A stretch of 29,918 nt of DNA from a virus (taxonomy: Duplodnaviria; Caudoviricetes): the IMG/VR virus record IMGVR_UViG_3300017913_001079, positions 1 to 29,918 of that record, one strand, 5' to 3'. The position numbers and the translations under genes were made by a program. Below the pieces are notes generated by a model. That model searched no databases and was not told the DNA's origin. It saw only the letters and a program-made list of their open reading frames with translations. Shown in pieces: positions 193-18,891 of this stretch (position 1 is its first letter; each line of letters starts with the position of its first letter).

Positions 193-340
193 AGATCCAG
201 GTATGCGTCACTTCTATGTCAGTCTATTGAAGTCGGGTGTACGTATTATTGCAGGCGCTCAGTTGATGGCTGGTCAGATTTGGGTTGCAGGTCTGCTTAT
301 TGTAGCAGCAGAGTTTCTAGGAATCTTGGAAGAACTATGA
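182..340 (+). CDS. small hydrophobic membrane protein (hypothetical)
   Basis: ATG 182 overlaps the queD end. The product MVNKDPGMRHFYVSLLKSGVRIIAG...LLIVAAEFLGILEEL has two hydrophobic segments. Its stop overlaps the queE start (ATGA). Confidence 0.65.
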   Translation: MVNKDPGMRHFYVSLLKSGVRIIAGAQLMAGQIWVAGLLIVAAEFLGILEEL

Positions 341-1263
341 GTAAAGAATATCACTATAGCGAGACGTTCTATTCCATGCAGGGTGAAGGGCACTATACAG
401 GTCGCCCGACTGTATGGTTGAGATACTTCTTGTGCAACCTACAATGTAGTGGGTTCGGTCAGATTGATCCAACAAATCCTGAGTCTTACTTTCTCCCTTA
501 TGAGGAATTGGATGTTCATGAGAAGGATTTGATGGGTGAGCCTAAATATAAAGTCATGGAAGACCTACCAGTGTTTGAGCATGGCTGCGATTCTTCGTAT
601 AGCTGGTCAAAGAAGTTTAAACACTTGCAGCGTAAAGGAACGCCTGATGAGATCAAACAAGTTTTGGAGAATCTTCTACCAACTGGTCGGTTTGGCAGCA
701 CTACTCACTTATGCCTTACTGGTGGTGAGCCATTGATGAGACATGCCCAGGCTTGCACCATGGGTATTGTTAAGAGTTTTGTTGAAGATGATAATGCTCC
801 TATGCACATTACATTTGAGACAAATGGTACACAAGCTCTTGCAGATGAATTCTATGATTACTTCAATTGGTATGGTGGCACCGTAGGCTTTCCAGAAGTA
901 TTCTGGAGTGTCTCGCCTAAGCTATGGACTGTTGCTGGTGAAAAGGCTGATAAAGCTATCAAGCCAGAGAATGTTGCTAAGTATGCTTCTGTGAAAGGTA
1001 GTAAAGGTCAATTGAAGTTTGTTGCCAATGGTACAGATGAATGCTGGGAAGAGATTGACTCTGTTATCCAACAGATGCGTGATGTTGGTGTTGAATATCC
1101 AGTATGGATCATGCCTGTGGGTGCCACTGTAGAAGGGCAGAAAGCACAGATCAAAGGTCATCATTACGAAGATGGTGAGATTGCAGATATGGCTCTGCAA
1201 CGTGGTTGGAATGTTAGTGCACGAGTGCATACTTATTTGTGGGGTAATAAAATTGGTGTTTAA
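337..1263 (+). CDS. queE: 7-carboxy-7-deazaguanine synthase QueE (radical SAM)
   Basis: Motifs SETFYSMQGEGHYTGRPTVWLR, CNLQC...GCDS, LTGGEP, FETNGT, SVSPK, LKFV and SARVH. Start taken as ATG 337 (MSKEYHYSE). Confidence 0.92.
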   Translation: MSKEYHYSETFYSMQGEGHYTGRPTVWLRYFLCNLQCSGFGQIDPTNPESYFLPYEELDVHEKDLMGEPKYKVMEDLPVFEHGCDSSYSWSKKFKHLQRKGTPDEIKQVLENLLPTGRFGSTTHLCLTGGEPLMRHAQACTMGIVKSFVEDDNAPMHITFETNGTQALADEFYDYFNWYGGTVGFPEVFWSVSPKLWTVAGEKADKAIKPENVAKYASVKGSKGQLKFVANGTDECWEEIDSVIQQMRDVGVEYPVWIMPVGATVEGQKAQIKGHHYEDGEIADMALQRGWNVSARVHTYLWGNKIGV

Positions 1264-1660
1264 GGACGGTAAGTTTTATTATCAGTGGGACAGATATCAG
1301 GAAGATATCTGCGCGCTGGCAGATGATTTGACGTTTGAGCCATCTGTTGTTATTGGCATTGCAAGAGGTGGGTGTGTACCAGCGGTACAGTTATCTCATC
1401 TACTCGGTAAGCCTTTCAAAGCAGTTACATGGCAGACACGTGATGGTGGAGTGAAAGAAAAATACAAAGTTCCAGAGTATGCATTGATTGTAGATGATAT
1501 CAATGACTCAGGTAAAACACTCAGAGAGTTTACAGAAAGAATTGAACACGATAAGTTTGCTACTCTGACATTATTTACGAAACCATCGAGTGAATATACT
1601 GTTGACTTTTATGCTAAGGAAGCAGAAGATGATAAGTGGATAGTCTTTCCATGGGAATAG
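1256..1660 (+). CDS. type I purine phosphoribosyltransferase (xanthine-guanine PRT-like)
   Basis: VIGIARGGCVPA, PRPP-binding LIVDDINDSGKT and C-terminal WIVFPWE, typical of the Gpt family. Start is uncertain (TTG 1253 or GTG 1256). Confidence 0.88.
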   Translation: MFKDGKFYYQWDRYQEDICALADDLTFEPSVVIGIARGGCVPAVQLSHLLGKPFKAVTWQTRDGGVKEKYKVPEYALIVDDINDSGKTLREFTERIEHDKFATLTLFTKPSSEYTVDFYAKEAEDDKWIVFPWE

Positions 1661-1998
1661 TTCAACGCAACTGGGGAACATATGAAGTGCTTTATAGTGG
1701 TGAAGGATATAGGGTGAAGCGTTTACTAATTGATCCAGCGTCAGCATTGTCTAATCAGTATCACAACCATCGCTCAGAAGCATGGACTGTTGTTAATGGT
1801 GAAGTTCTACTTCAACTATTTCATCCAGAGAAAGATAAGCAGATGTATGAGATTCATTTGAGCAAAGGTGAGTCTCATACTATTGATGTTGGTACATGGC
1901 ATAGAGCCATTAACCCTACAGATACTGTTACAGAGATTATTGAGATCTGGACAGGAAACAAATTGTCTGAAGACGATATTATTAGAGCGGAAAGATAA
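1651..1998 (+). CDS. cupin, mannose-6-phosphate isomerase type II C-terminal-like domain
   Basis: RNWGTYEVL...VKRL.I.P...LSNQYHNHRSEAWTVVNG...HRAIN...IIEIWTG..LSEDDIIR matches the ManC/PMI-II cupin pattern. Confidence 0.85.
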   Translation: MGIVQRNWGTYEVLYSGEGYRVKRLLIDPASALSNQYHNHRSEAWTVVNGEVLLQLFHPEKDKQMYEIHLSKGESHTIDVGTWHRAINPTDTVTEIIEIWTGNKLSEDDIIRAER

Positions 1999-2037
1999 AT
2001 ATGACTATCAATTACAATACAGAGGAGTCTACATACT

Positions 2038-2709
2038 ATGTCGAAAAATAATCCAGAGCTGGGTCGTGAGGTGAATAAGTTTCTCGACTCTAAAGGTATC
2101 AATACACCAGTAACTGAAATGGTGAAAGTTGATCGTGAGACTAAACTTGCAAAGGTGGCTGAGCTTACGAAAGAGATGCTTGAGGTTCTAGGTTTGGATC
2201 TGACAGATGATTCTCTTGAAGAAACCCCTATGCGTGTAGCTAAGATGTATGTAGATGAGATCTTCTCAGGTCTGCGTTATGATACGTTCCCTAAATGTAC
2301 TACTGTAGAAAATAAGTTCTGTCATGGCGATGAGTTTGTTCTTGAGAAGAATATTACATTGTATTCTGATTGTGAACACCACTTGCGTCCTATCATTGGT
2401 ACAGCACATATTGCTTACATCCCAGGTGAAAAGGTTCTTGGCCTCTCCAAGCTCAATCGTATCACACAATACTTTGCACAGCGTCCTCAAGTACAAGAAC
2501 GTCTTACACAACAGATTGCTGAGTCAATTGCATTCATTACAGACTCACAAGATGTTATGGTTGTTGTAGAAGCAGCTCATACTTGTGTATCCCAACGTGG
2601 TATTAAAGATACTAATTCTTCTACAGTTACAGCATGTTGCCTTGGCCAGTTCGGTGAATCAAATTCAGAGCTCCGTAAAGAGGTTATGGCAAACATTAAC
2701 AGAGGTTAA
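2038..2709 (+). CDS. folE: GTP cyclohydrolase I FolE
   Basis: Motifs ETPMRVAKMY, CEHH, GLSKLNRI, RPQVQERLT and HTCVSQRG. SD AGAGGAG lies upstream. Confidence 0.96.
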   Translation: MSKNNPELGREVNKFLDSKGINTPVTEMVKVDRETKLAKVAELTKEMLEVLGLDLTDDSLEETPMRVAKMYVDEIFSGLRYDTFPKCTTVENKFCHGDEFVLEKNITLYSDCEHHLRPIIGTAHIAYIPGEKVLGLSKLNRITQYFAQRPQVQERLTQQIAESIAFITDSQDVMVVVEAAHTCVSQRGIKDTNSSTVTACCLGQFGESNSELRKEVMANINRG

Positions 2710-8346: not shown

Positions 8347-8732
8347 GCAACCCATTTGACTACCTAAACGCAATCAACTATACAAAAGAGAACCTAGTGC
8401 ACGGTAGTAACAACGATGAGTTGGCCGAGCAAGGATATAACGCATTTGTTGTTAACCGTGGACTATCGTTCTTTCCTGACACAATTTTGTATGCAAATGA
8501 GATGAATATCAAGCACCAGCTAGATAAGAGTCTCCAATTTGACTATCTTATAAATAGTATTAGACCTAAGAAACGGTTCAGTAAGTGGCACAAGAAGATT
8601 TCTAACGAGGACTTCGAAGCTGTTCAGATGTACTACAAATGTAGTGATTCAAAAGCAGAGACAGTACTCAAAGTGTTAACTAGTGAGCAGTTGCAATGTA
8701 TAAAAGATAGACTACAAAGTTGTGAGGAATAA
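8343..8732 (+). CDS. gp62: clamp loader small subunit
   Basis: PFDYLNAIN, YNAFVVNRGLS..PDTILYANEMN and KKRFSKW, with the expected synteny. Confidence 0.92.
   Translation: MSNPFDYLNAINYTKENLVHGSNNDELAEQGYNAFVVNRGLSFFPDTILYANEMNIKHQLDKSLQFDYLINSIRPKKRFSKWHKKISNEDFEAVQMYYKCSDSKAETVLKVLTSEQLQCIKDRLQSCEE
8549..8556 (+). promoter_or_regulatory. possible T4-type late promoter inside gp62, upstream of regA
   Basis: Exact TATAAATA, but it lies in coding sequence (YLINS) and may be incidental. Confidence 0.4.
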
Positions 8733-10754: not shown

Positions 10755-11157
10755 TTGGTCTAAAGATCCTTCTTCTAAGATTGGTGCTATTGCCGTTGGT
10801 GAGCATGGACAGATTCTGTCTCAGGGCTACAACGGTTTCCCTCGTGGTGTAGAAGATACACTACATCGATGGCACGATAAGAAGATCAAATATGATTATG
10901 TTGTTCATGCAGAGAAGAATGTAATCTACAATGCATCCTTAAATGGTGTATCTCTAAAAGACTCAACTCTCTATGTGTTTGGTCTTCCCGTTTGTAATGA
11001 ATGTGCTAAAGCAATTGTGCAGGTTGGAATTAAACGTGTTGTCTTTAGAGCACCTCCGAAGGATAATGGATATATCAATTTGAAGTGGGAAAAGGCTTGG
11101 GCCGTGACCAAGTCTATCTTCCGTGAGGCTGGAGTAGACTTTAAACAATATGAGTAA
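10705..11157 (+). CDS. cd: dCMP deaminase
   Basis: WSKDPS.KIGA, GYNGFPRG, VVHAEKN and PVCNECAK (HAE plus PCxxC-type Zn site). Confidence 0.93.
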   Translation: MTDWDDRYLDLAEHFASWSKDPSSKIGAIAVGEHGQILSQGYNGFPRGVEDTLHRWHDKKIKYDYVVHAEKNVIYNASLNGVSLKDSTLYVFGLPVCNECAKAIVQVGIKRVVFRAPPKDNGYINLKWEKAWAVTKSIFREAGVDFKQYE

Positions 11158-15960: not shown

Positions 15961-16180
15961 AAAGGACTTTCCTGAATGGGGCGTTCGTATTCTCTCAGGT
16001 GACTTTGCAGATATAGAGTTTGTTGTTGACCGTATCGGTATCCCCGAGCAGGTCGAAGAAGATGATACTCCTGTTGCTGTAAAGATTGAGTATACATTAT
16101 TGCAGGGCGAATGTCCTGCCGGTGAAAGTGTTCGTCTTACACAGACGATTGGTTGGATCATTGAGGACATTATTGAGTGA
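15920..16180 (+). CDS. small acidic protein at the T4 gp40 position
   Basis: 86 aa between uvsX and gp41. Similarity to gp40 is inferred from position only. Confidence 0.6.
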   Translation: MNRVIPHYQITENKKDFPEWGVRILSGDFADIEFVVDRIGIPEQVEEDDTPVAVKIEYTLLQGECPAGESVRLTQTIGWIIEDIIE

Positions 16181-17556
16181 TTGAAAATAAGATTCTGAGT
16201 AACCTTGTATACAATGAAACGTATGCGAGGGCTGTTATTCCTTTCCTACAGCCTGAATACTTTCAAGGGTTTGGCGATAAGACTGTCTTTGAGACTATCG
16301 CTAAACACTATGTAAAGTACAACACAGTGCCGACTGTAGAGTCATTGTCTATTGACGTTGATTCTATGGGTCTTAATGAGAACTTGTTTAAGCAGGCTCT
16401 TGATACCATTGAGATGTTGGATGAGAAGGCATACGAAGATAGTCAGTGGCTAGTTGATCAGACAGAGAAGTTCTGTCAAGAGAAAGCTGTATACAATGCT
16501 GTGATGGAGTCTATTGAGATTCTTGATGGCAAGACCAACGAAACAAAGACATCCATTCCTGATCTGTTGAGCAAAGCTCTTGGTGTGTCATTTGACCAAC
16601 ATATTGGCCATGACTTTATTGAGAATGCTGACTCTCGTTACGAGTCTTATCACAAAGTAGATAAGAAGGTAGACTTTGATCTGAAGTATCTTAATGCTGT
16701 GACCAATGGTGGGTTCAGTGAGAAGTCATTGAATGTTATCCTTGCTGGTACAGGTGCTGGTAAGTCACTTGCAATGTGTCATATGGCATCACATAACTTG
16801 AAGATGCATAAGAATGTATTGTACATTACTATGGAAATGTCTGAAGAAGCGATTGCTAAGCGTATTGATGCCAACCTGCTTGATAAGGCTTATGATACCA
16901 TTGACAAGTTGCCTAAAGAGACATATGAGAAGCTGATTGATGGTCTGAAGACTAAGACTAAAGGTCGTCTGATTATCAAGGAATATCCTACTGCAGCTGC
17001 ACACTCTTTGCACTTCAAGACTCTATTGAAAGAGCTTGAGATGAAGAAAAAGTTCAAGCCAGATATCATCTATATTGACTATATCAACATCTGTGCTTCA
17101 TCTCGTCTGAAAGGCAATGTTACAGCTAACTCATATACAATCGTTAAGGCTATTGCTGAGGAGCTTCGTGGGTTGGCTGTAGAGACTGGTGTTCCTATTG
17201 TCACAGCAACACAGACTAACCGGGCTGGTTATGATAGTAGTGATGTTGATCTAACAAATACTTCTGAGTCATTTGGCTTGCCAGCTACTGCAGACTTTAT
17301 GATTGCATTGATGCGTTCTGAAGAGTTGGATCAACGTGGTCAAGTACAGTTTAAGCAGCTGAAGAATCGTTATGCTGATCCATCTGTTAACCGTAGGTTT
17401 GTAGTAGGTGTTGATCTGAGCAAGTTTAGATTATATGATGTTGAAGATGAAGCACAAGATCTGAATGATAGCAATACAGCTATTCCAGATACACCAATCA
17501 TGGATGATATGACATTCAGAGACTCAAAACCTAAGTGGGGAGGTATGAAGATATGA
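16177..17556 (+). CDS. gp41: replicative DnaB-like helicase
   Basis: LAGTGAGKSL, YITMEM, IKEYPT, IDYINI, AEELRGLA, ATQTNR, SESFGLPATAD and KQLKNRY. GTG start. Confidence 0.97.
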   Translation: MIENKILSNLVYNETYARAVIPFLQPEYFQGFGDKTVFETIAKHYVKYNTVPTVESLSIDVDSMGLNENLFKQALDTIEMLDEKAYEDSQWLVDQTEKFCQEKAVYNAVMESIEILDGKTNETKTSIPDLLSKALGVSFDQHIGHDFIENADSRYESYHKVDKKVDFDLKYLNAVTNGGFSEKSLNVILAGTGAGKSLAMCHMASHNLKMHKNVLYITMEMSEEAIAKRIDANLLDKAYDTIDKLPKETYEKLIDGLKTKTKGRLIIKEYPTAAAHSLHFKTLLKELEMKKKFKPDIIYIDYINICASSRLKGNVTANSYTIVKAIAEELRGLAVETGVPIVTATQTNRAGYDSSDVDLTNTSESFGLPATADFMIALMRSEELDQRGQVQFKQLKNRYADPSVNRRFVVGVDLSKFRLYDVEDEAQDLNDSNTAIPDTPIMDDMTFRDSKPKWGGMKI

Positions 17557-17753
17557 ACAACTACGAAATCAAGACAGAAGGTAAGACTCATACCATCTTA
17601 GAGAAAGCTACTGGCTATGAAGTGTTCTCATCTAACAATAAACGTAAAGCATACAAGCAATTAGCTCATTTTAACATGGGTGGATGCTTTGATGGCTGGA
17701 CTCCATCGTTTTTTCTGACAGAAATTCCAGAAAATTATTACGAAGAAGGGTAA
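17553..17753 (+). CDS. hypothetical protein
   Basis: ATGA overlap with gp41 and SD GGAGG upstream; contains NMGGCFDGWTPSFF. Confidence 0.7.
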   Translation: MNNYEIKTEGKTHTILEKATGYEVFSSNNKRKAYKQLAHFNMGGCFDGWTPSFFLTEIPENYYEEG

Positions 17754-17759
17754 TAAAGT

Positions 17760-17767
17760 TATAAATA
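17760..17767 (+). promoter_or_regulatory. T4-type late promoter
   Basis: Exact intergenic TATAAATA. Confidence 0.75.
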
Positions 17768-17771
17768 GTTA

Positions 17772-17975
17772 CGCCGGGTAGTGTGTTTCACGATCTGTAT
17801 CCTCTACCTGCAGATTGCTCGTTGGTTAGCAGATGCCAGTGGCAAGAGCGCTAGTAAGGTCCGTGCGGGGATCCCTAATGCTGATTGGAAGTGACGGGAA
17901 GTATACTTTGGGGTTAAGCCTGTCCGAGCAATAGACAAGAAGAAAGCGGCCGGATTGCACGTCTGGCCGCTTTTA
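17772..17975 (+). ncRNA. putative structured non-coding RNA (~200 nt), family not recognised
   Basis: GC-rich, no + strand ORF, bounded by a late promoter and a terminator, with multiple nested helices. Confidence 0.6.
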
Positions 17976-17979
17976 CTTT
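17943..17979 (+). terminator. intrinsic terminator (possibly bidirectional)
   Basis: AAAGCGGCCGGA-TTGCACG-TCTGGCCGCTTT followed by TACTTT. Confidence 0.8.
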
Positions 17980-18092
17980 GTGAAGGGTTATTGTTATTGG
18001 TTGGGTCAAAGTTTGTATAACTCATGTGGATATTTATGATCTAGAACTCTCGGAAACACGTAAAATAAATATTTTTTTGAGTGTATTGTTTT

Positions 18093-18853: not shown

Positions 18854-18891
18854 AAGCCTCCAGGATATAAATATCCTTGGAGGCTTTTTTT
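18854..18891 (+). terminator. terminator hairpin containing a late promoter and the next gene's SD
   Basis: AAGCCTCCA-GGATATAAATATCC-T-TGGAGGCTT followed by a T-tract. TATAAATA at 18866-18873, GGAGG at 18879-18883. Confidence 0.8.

Follow-up and report, generated by a model that had tools for sequence, protein, structure and literature searches.

A late RNA gene with a four-way junction and an invariant loop, linked to gp41 in uncultured T4-like phages

The window (the whole 29,918-nucleotide stretch of DNA that was analysed) covers part of the genome of an uncultured T4-like phage, at 17% completeness. Its gene set, assigned with PHROGs, comprises gp45, gp44/62, RegA, gp43, UvsX and gp41. 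The context of the RNA is a gene for a gp41-type DnaB helicase (positions 16177-17556, + strand; phrog_19, E 2e-118), and the closest cultured gp41 proteins among the matches listed were 53-59% identical. On the 3' side of gp41 follow, in this order, a 66-aa ORF without assigned function (17553-17753, + strand), the word TATAAATA at 17760, an RNA stretch of about 205 nt and a terminator hairpin; two further late promoters lie between this terminator and the next gene. The 66-aa ORF is the usual upstream neighbour of the RNA gene. It has 332 relatives, none of which carries a name, and its protein gave no clear match in Pfam, PHROGs, Atlas, Foldseek or VIA (best Z 4.6). At the other end of the window (280-2709), genes for a QueE-like radical SAM protein and a GTP cyclohydrolase were found with their neighbours, and this group is likely a 7-deazaguanine DNA-modification cluster.

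The T4-type late promoter TATAAATA occupies positions 17760-17767 (+ strand). This word spans -13 to -6 (PMC1524935, accessible portion), and the +1 was therefore predicted at 17773. The word occurs seven times in the window, always on the + strand, compared with 1.8 occurrences expected. One copy (8549-8556) lies within the clamp-loader small-subunit gene, upstream of regA, and another (18866-18873) sits in the apex of a terminator-like hairpin that is followed by a T run (18856-18891), as a promoter for the next gene. The whole predicted transcript (17773-17979, + strand, about 205 nt) consists of a 5' hairpin, a four-way-junction core and a terminator; its 5' end was set by the -13 rule and by the contig start described below, and its 3' end was placed from the terminator. 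The latter is an intrinsic terminator hairpin with a U-rich tail (17942-17979, + strand), identified by fold and covariation; it was absent from the output of a simple terminator scan. In the long forms of the RNA (see below), three of its four scored pairs are compensatory, and the strong terminator reported by the first-pass annotation stands. That annotation had described a late promoter followed by a GC-rich, ORF-free RNA and a terminator. The words it quoted were all found in place, the unit is kept in the homologues, and the stretch is richer in GC than the whole window (0.52 vs 0.41). The ORF-free character holds for the + strand, where no ORF of at least 50 aa is present, but a 73-aa ORF overlaps the RNA on the minus strand (17804-18025). 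Antisense coding by this ORF was rejected, as its frame is not conserved and shifts among relatives.

For expression, eight metatranscriptome runs from five studies were used. They were chosen by the presence of part of the stretch, so that their cover gives no ranking, and uncovered stretches were kept out of the evidence. Contigs of relatives span the RNA in all eight runs. In run X7, a relative's contig of depth 3, which is about 94% alike, has its first + strand base at 17773, preceded by 18 adapter letters that carry the template-switch handle as given in the accessible part of PMC8579666; its 5' end is thus the predicted +1. Because template switching also marks broken RNA, and because the promoter spacing may differ by one base in a relative, this 5' end is treated as a single good hint. 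In X1, X2 and X3, contigs extend 45-100 nt beyond the terminator, which is read-through or DNA.

Relatives of the window RNA were collected as follows: a search with the downstream protein returned six loci, four of them with the RNA, and the matches from scanning viral and metagenome contigs with patterns, after a screen with nhmmer, completed a long-form set of the window and 10 distinct relatives. The nhmmer screen dropped chance pattern matches (4/11, 4/10 and 12/19 in three scans, and most in two others). In all six long forms that were checked (a duplicate pair included), the RNA gene follows gp41 and the small ORF; every aligned long form begins with the late promoter. The downstream gene differs among them. 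Identity to the window was 72-95% in the core and 47-73% in the flanks. In a gp41 tree built by a quick method from the best 61 of 84 sequences, the long forms make up one clade (99); the deeper order is not settled. The RNA core of locus L017 is 95% identical to that of the window, yet in gp41 this locus forms a long branch (61% across the fragment), which suggests recombination in or near gp41.

The folding energy of the window stretch was not unusual against shuffles (z -0.33; core z -0.30), and the case therefore rests on the homologues. For the window alone, two competing folds were equal in energy (-65.6 and -66.1), so that the comparison across relatives decides the fold. The fold common to long and short forms is a four-way junction, with all elements on the + strand. 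P1 is formed by 17815-17821 and 17925-17931, the 3' strand following directly after P4; compensatory changes were found at 5/7 of its pairs in the long-form comparison and at 4/6 in the scoring of the revised core. The P2 hairpin (17823-17838) contains GCAGA(U) in its loop (17829-17834), has two of four pairs compensatory in the long forms and was also seen in per-sequence folds. The junction strand J2/3 (GUGGCA, 17839-17844) reads GAGGCA in most family members; the model R1 (see below) places L043, L168, L020 and L180 in the same register. It is followed by a long P3 arm (17843-17887; GCG-C-UAG/CUA-A-UGC with apical GUCC/GGAU), the pairs of which are kept in all long forms. Changes in this arm are one-sided only, which makes it the least certain helix, and its placement is uncertain as its base overlaps the junction strands. 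J3/4 (GGAAGU, 17887-17892; GGAA-N-A/U-G in the family) leads into P4 (17893-17924; 17893-17898 paired with 17919-17924), which carries a one-sided 7-nt bulge and covaries in the short forms. At its tip lies P4a (17906-17918), where three base pairs (CUU/AAG) enclose the invariant loop UGGGGUU (17909-17915). The revised core is 99.7% paired and has seven compensatory pairs.

Several helices drawn by the first-pass annotation agree with this fold. TGCTCG/CGAGCA, which falls in P1, and GACGGG/CCTGTC, which is P4, each keep 6/6 pairs in 11/11 long-form sequences, and the 5' stem GGGTAG/CTACCT keeps 4-6 of 6 pairs across the 11. The proposed multibranch was correct in being closed by P1 and in containing P4, but two of its helices were wrong and the stem of the UGGGGUU loop (17906-17918) had been missed. 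The helix TGGTTAGCA/TGCTGATTG forms 9/9 pairs in four of 11 sequences and 5-7 pairs in the others, and TGCC/GGCA forms 4/4 pairs in just 4/11; both are replaced by the local P2, the linker GUGGCA and the long P3. A GTG-TTT-CAC hairpin has its three pairs in the window only.

The long form carries an accessory 5' hairpin (17775-17810; stem 17775-17781/17804-17810) that is absent from the short forms. A pseudoknot had been proposed here between ATCTGT and GCAGAT at 17810-17815; that partner is wrong, with 5-6 of 6 pairs in only 5/11 sequences, but a pseudoknot of this kind exists as a loop-loop kissing contact. GCAGAT occurs twice in the window, and the second copy (17829-17834) sits in the P2 loop. 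Within the loop strand AUCUGU (17793-17798), positions 17794-17798 form five pairs with 17829-17833 of the P2 loop, and these are kept in 11/11 long forms. A U-A to G-C change in L011, L016 and L179 amounts to one evolutionary event. The contact explains the conservation of its two words in otherwise variable loops. A further candidate, a CCCUAA/UUGGGG pseudoknot, was rejected: it is confined to the long forms, where 4-6 of 6 pairs form, and shows no compensatory change.

The first-pass annotation had proposed collecting homologues downstream of gp41 and testing them for covariation. The RNA was found in more than 100 uncultured phage fragments, and covariation is present; in T4-like phages that are more distantly related, a shorter form takes the position that the long form has here. 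A profile of the small ORF gave 35 loci. In a structure search with the loop unconstrained, 24 of these had an adjacent RNA (17 distinct). In all 17 distinct copies the loop is identical, UGGGGUU, and it is closed by eight different Watson-Crick 3-bp P4a stems. In L200, the RNA gene is inverted relative to the small ORF; in this copy (1673-1811, minus strand), P4 is lengthened by a 17-nt insert and the stem reads CAC/GUG, and L205 and L218 have 15-nt inserts. A three-motif pattern scan then gave at least 120 short-form loci (total estimated at 200; 90 distinct). Since this pattern fixed its motifs, the invariance of the loop is argued from the loop-free search. The late-promoter word lies upstream in 117/120 matches, the small ORF in 114/120 and gp41 in 70 (long flanks were available in only 80). 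After removal of rows without promoter, with short flanks or duplicated, 88 distinct rows were kept. Covariation was strongest in the columns of four pairs of P4 and of the outer pair of P4a, all of which are standard in 88/88. P4 has 28 sequence variants in the 88 rows; in 55 short forms, it is 100% paired and compensatory at 5/6 pairs, more than in any shuffle or slid control, and the compensatory changes include G-U pairs.

That the stretch makes no functional RNA, being a DNA element, a terminator region or antisense coding, would fit the folding z of about -0.3 and the overlapping minus-strand ORF. The compensatory changes including G-U, the shifting antisense frame and the 5' end in an RNA library leave this reading a negligible share, and the stretch is almost certainly a real RNA gene.

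In the short forms, the core spans 90-136 nt, with a P2 hairpin in 88/88, a P3 of at least three pairs in 72/88 and a terminator of hairpin and T run in 87/88. They are without the 5' hairpin, and P1 starts a median of 5 nt after the estimated transcript start. J4/1 measures 0-1 nt in 74/88 (0 nt in 58/88) and J1/2 measures 2 nt in 46/88. One short form, L310, has an 87-nt leader with two small hairpins 5' of the core, unlike the 5' extension of the long form. The model R1, derived solely from 55 short forms, ranked positions 17804-17937 of the window first, although weakly (15.9 bits, E 0.058); it matched 8/10 long forms at E<1 and gave no match in 25 other sources. The exact P4 of the window is present in two short forms, and all family elements (late promoter, P1, P2, GnGGYA, P3, GGAA, bulged 6-bp P4, UGGGGUU stem and terminator) are present in the window. 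We take the window RNA to belong to this gp41-linked late RNA family as its long form.

Each of seven member records, including the 99% complete G014, holds one copy of the RNA. A search with R1 found none in the 97% complete G011, and no convincing RNA was found in 12/12 cultured T4-like phages tested, including S-PM2, DSL-LC03, Melnitz and T4. In these 12, R1 gave three weak matches in two records, with the P4/loop half missing in both alignments shown. With a loosely defined GGAA...TGGGGTT pattern, 13 matches were obtained in 9/16 records, none with promoter and P4. By blastn against cultured phages, the window RNA had no match and two short forms had only short chance matches. A pattern scan of GTDB returned 47 bacterial or archaeal matches (four at E<1, none below 0.05), and the P4 pairs were broken in the three shown. 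As R1 is weak on divergent forms, absence falls short of proof; taken at face value, the absence from the 12 cultured phages and from G011 indicates that the RNA is dispensable in close lineages. In G012, the record of L005, R1 had a weak match at 10765-10849 (17 bits, E 0.014); in this relative, the shared gene has no RNA upstream. The unrelated contigs L023 and L024 carry, in an AT-rich stretch at about 1450-1560, three iteron-like direct repeats, each about 17 nt long. A proposal that the RNA replaces MazG was dropped as uninformative: MazG is absent from all 10 records, carriers of the RNA and non-carriers alike.

The position of the small ORF, upstream in 114/120 matches, could mean that the RNA is one half of a two-part module with the 66-aa protein. 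This is decidedly unlikely: 11 of the 35 small-ORF loci are without adjacent RNA, G011 and an Ochrobactrum phage likewise have the small ORF or a weak match to it and no RNA, the helix of the protein is basic in the window and acidic in L011 and L016, and the fold searches with the 66-aa protein, which gave no clear match of any kind, showed no RNA-binding fold.

The RNA has its own promoter and terminator, its gene is inverted in L200 and the downstream gene varies, and it is therefore not a cis leader. Helices that are free in sequence, combined with a fixed loop and fixed junction purines, point to a conserved partner that reads the folded RNA. Complements of the loop were searched for: no Watson-Crick partner is conserved inside the RNA in long or short forms, E. 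coli rRNA holds no exact complement of UGGGGUU, and no complement lies within 40 nt of the starts of ORFs of at least 100 aa in G014-G016 or anywhere on the + strand of the window. Hfq-type small RNAs have a G-rich exposed loop and a terminator, as this RNA does, and UGGGGUU might accordingly be the seed of a base-pairing small RNA that targets C-rich mRNA sites or the anti-Shine-Dalgarno end; with no complement in any of these places, that reading is very improbable.

As no conserved complement of the loop turned up within the RNA, in E. coli rRNA or near phage ORF starts, a decoy or modulator that binds a protein was ranked first, and among the functional guesses of the first-pass annotation we likewise favour the decoy and put the ribozyme low. 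We infer, at a probability of roughly 0.35, that the RNA acts in trans by binding one conserved protein through the UGGGGUU loop and the purine-rich junction. P1 and P4 would stack, with the loop carried at the tip of the bulged arm. The helices would serve as a scaffold, fixed in pairing and free in sequence, and sequence-specific reading would be confined to GGAA, GnGGYA and the loop. The 5' hairpin of the long form would brace the fold by kissing the P2 loop. The partner may be a host protein of the translation, stress or anti-phage machinery, which the RNA would titrate while virions assemble. Against this reading, decoy RNAs often repeat their binding site and this RNA has a single loop and a single GGA, the evidence of expression is one depth-3 contig from a relative, and the present data do not discriminate between a protein, a tRNA, a small molecule and a second RNA copy as the partner.

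The last of these would make the RNA a self-assembling structural molecule, with intermolecular pairing of P2 loops and a four-stranded UGGGGU core, that forms dimers or tetramers which serve virion assembly or are themselves packaged. The late promoter would suit such a role, and the kissing pair of 11/11 long forms could act between molecules. In the short forms, a 6-nt palindrome is present in 11/54 distinct P2 loops compared with 4.5 in shuffles (one shuffle in 1000 as high), or 14/54 compared with 7.8 when G-U is allowed; P3 loops, used as control, show 4/51 compared with 4.1. However, 40-43 of the 54 loops have no palindrome, so that dimers may form in a subset, and the loops share common descent. 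The r(UGGGGU)4 tetraplex is known to be very stable (PMC6298561, available in part), but it is known for free hexamers and not for a loop closed by a covarying stem, and T4 and cyanophages assemble without this RNA. We regard multimers as a doubtful alternative to the decoy.

A tRNA could also be the partner. The loop resembles helix 80 (the P-loop) of 23S rRNA, in which a 3-bp stem closes a 7-nt loop beginning UGGGG (UGGGGCG at 2249 in E. coli); in the RNA the loop ends UU rather than CG, the stem sequence is free and the surroundings are unrelated. T-box RNAs, with their bulge sequence, are the other basis of comparison with CCA binders, and the exposed UGG/GG of UGGGGUU could pair with NCCA in a P-loop-like or T-box-like manner. 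In 23S rRNA, G2251 and G2252 pair with the P-site CCA (PMC7049736, available in part). A P-loop mimic might thus pair with the 3' CCA of tRNAs, shielding the ends or hiding uncharged tRNA from the stringent response. The fold has a tRNA-like topology, with a 2-nt J1/2 (46/88) and a 0-nt J4/1 (58/88): it shares with the tRNA cloverleaf a four-way junction, a closing stem of 7-8 bp, a 2-nt first linker, a 7-nt terminal loop and a last arm that would stack on P1, judging from the J4/1 of 0-1 nt. It differs in having long purine linkers and neither a T-loop, an anticodon-loop consensus nor CCA. Four of the seven member records hold 26-31 tRNA genes and two a tmRNA gene (G014, 58259-58647; G015, 73797-74140; 26-30 tRNAs, nearly all with encoded CCA). 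G014 combines 28 tRNAs with a permuted tmRNA of alphaproteobacterial type (RF01849-type), on account of which this member likely infects Alphaproteobacteria. However, tRNA content as a marker fails to separate carriers from non-carriers: G011, DLP6, S-PM2 and the Ochrobactrum phage, all without the RNA, have 25-37 tRNAs. Furthermore, UGGGG occurs 13 times in the E. coli rRNA operon, a copy framed by a 3-bp stem has about even odds by chance on our own estimate, the likeness to helix 80 is not above chance, and CCA pairing needs two or three fixed bases rather than seven. A tRNA binder is therefore unlikely. Equally hard to favour is its fuller version, in which the hairpin would seize tRNA CCA ends in trans, with a kissing-loop dimer in some lineages, and, late in infection, would steer host translation or dampen the stringent response.

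Riboswitch aptamers are typically small multi-way junctions with fixed purines and a peripheral loop-loop contact. This RNA shares that build and has no downstream gene to regulate, and it might be a free aptamer whose purine-rich junction soaks up a nucleotide signal (an alarmone or an anti-phage second messenger). No Rfam riboswitch scored, the junction has fewer fixed bases than in most aptamers and the most conserved element is the distal loop, and we consider an aptamer improbable beside the protein-binding decoy.

A widespread aquatic lineage of T4-like phages thus keeps a dedicated late gene at a fixed site for an RNA of 100-200 nt, whose scaffold varies freely while its loop never does, marking a conserved binding partner. 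To our knowledge, few trans-acting structured RNAs of phages have known jobs. A decoy, a tRNA binder, a multimer or a nucleotide sponge would each be a new phage tactic, and the CCA reading, if true, would mean that T4-like phages steer host translation with a tRNA-binding RNA that stands on its own. The long form is a natural experiment, as its extra hairpin kisses a P2 loop that is self-complementary in some short forms. The RNA is small enough to be made and tested directly.

The window was compared with known RNAs by a scan of Rfam 15, which gave no match at the gathering threshold and sub-threshold matches only at E<=10, in line with the novelty assigned by the first-pass annotation; among 12 further loci (11 with short forms), three sub-threshold matches were found, and the G014 copy had no match. 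The RNA is not a tRNA (ARAGORN 0, RF00005 negative, loop UGGGGUU, no CCA after P1), nor a tmRNA (no Rfam or ARAGORN match; G014 has a separate, real tmRNA), as had been stated from the sequence alone. Likenesses to other motifs (tmRNA D-loop, c-di-AMP, ykkC, cobalamin, glmS, SRP Alu) were rejected, being not family-wide and without Rfam score, and a likeness of GGAAUUGACGGG and CGCUAGUAA to 16S rRNA was rejected because the longest shared words (9-11 nt) were matched by about 10% or more of shuffles.

RNase P RNA was also set aside. The GGAA purine linker, the P4-like helix and the P1 strand directly after it are shared with CR-I/P4 of E. coli rnpB; here, P2 is a local hairpin, an S domain is lacking, the size is one third, and P4 has six contiguous pairs in 55/55 without a bulged U and without an Rfam match. 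A ribozyme, for which the conserved compact junction and the loose resemblance of GGAA-N-AG-P4 to GAGGAAAGUCCGGG of RNase P might speak, is highly improbable: P4 has no bulged U, and the window and the 12 loci had no Rfam match to self-cleaving ribozymes (HDV-like, glmS, twister, hammerhead and others). Terminator-bounded motifs of comparable type showed no self-cleavage in the tests given in the accessible text of PMC5737381. Among these orphan motifs, DUF3800-I, drum and FuFi-1, as well as skipping-rope, are likewise compact conserved RNAs followed by an intrinsic terminator and placed outside 5' UTRs (Weinberg 2017, PMC5737381, same portion); the present RNA differs in its T4 late promoter, gp41 linkage, restriction to phages and fold.

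What had been called a novel phage ncRNA is stand-alone, late, structured and covarying, with a fold that had been drawn partly wrong. RNA C and RNA D are non-coding RNAs of T4. CfrI, PhotoRC-II and wcaG, together with the glutamine riboswitch, are RNAs of T4-like cyanophages (PMC9964418, available in part). With all of these, the present RNA shares only being an ncRNA gene, and it had no Rfam match. The literature searched, which covered subscription journals to a small extent, held no description of it. The most comparable object is the set of candidate structured RNAs that Fremin 2023 drew from the same database, IMG/VR (PMC10690425, available in part); four supplement files of that study contained no family motif, and the family may be among its 10,006 unnamed candidates. 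With such an unnamed earlier listing possible, we file the RNA as a new structural class within a known kind of orphan phage RNA genes.
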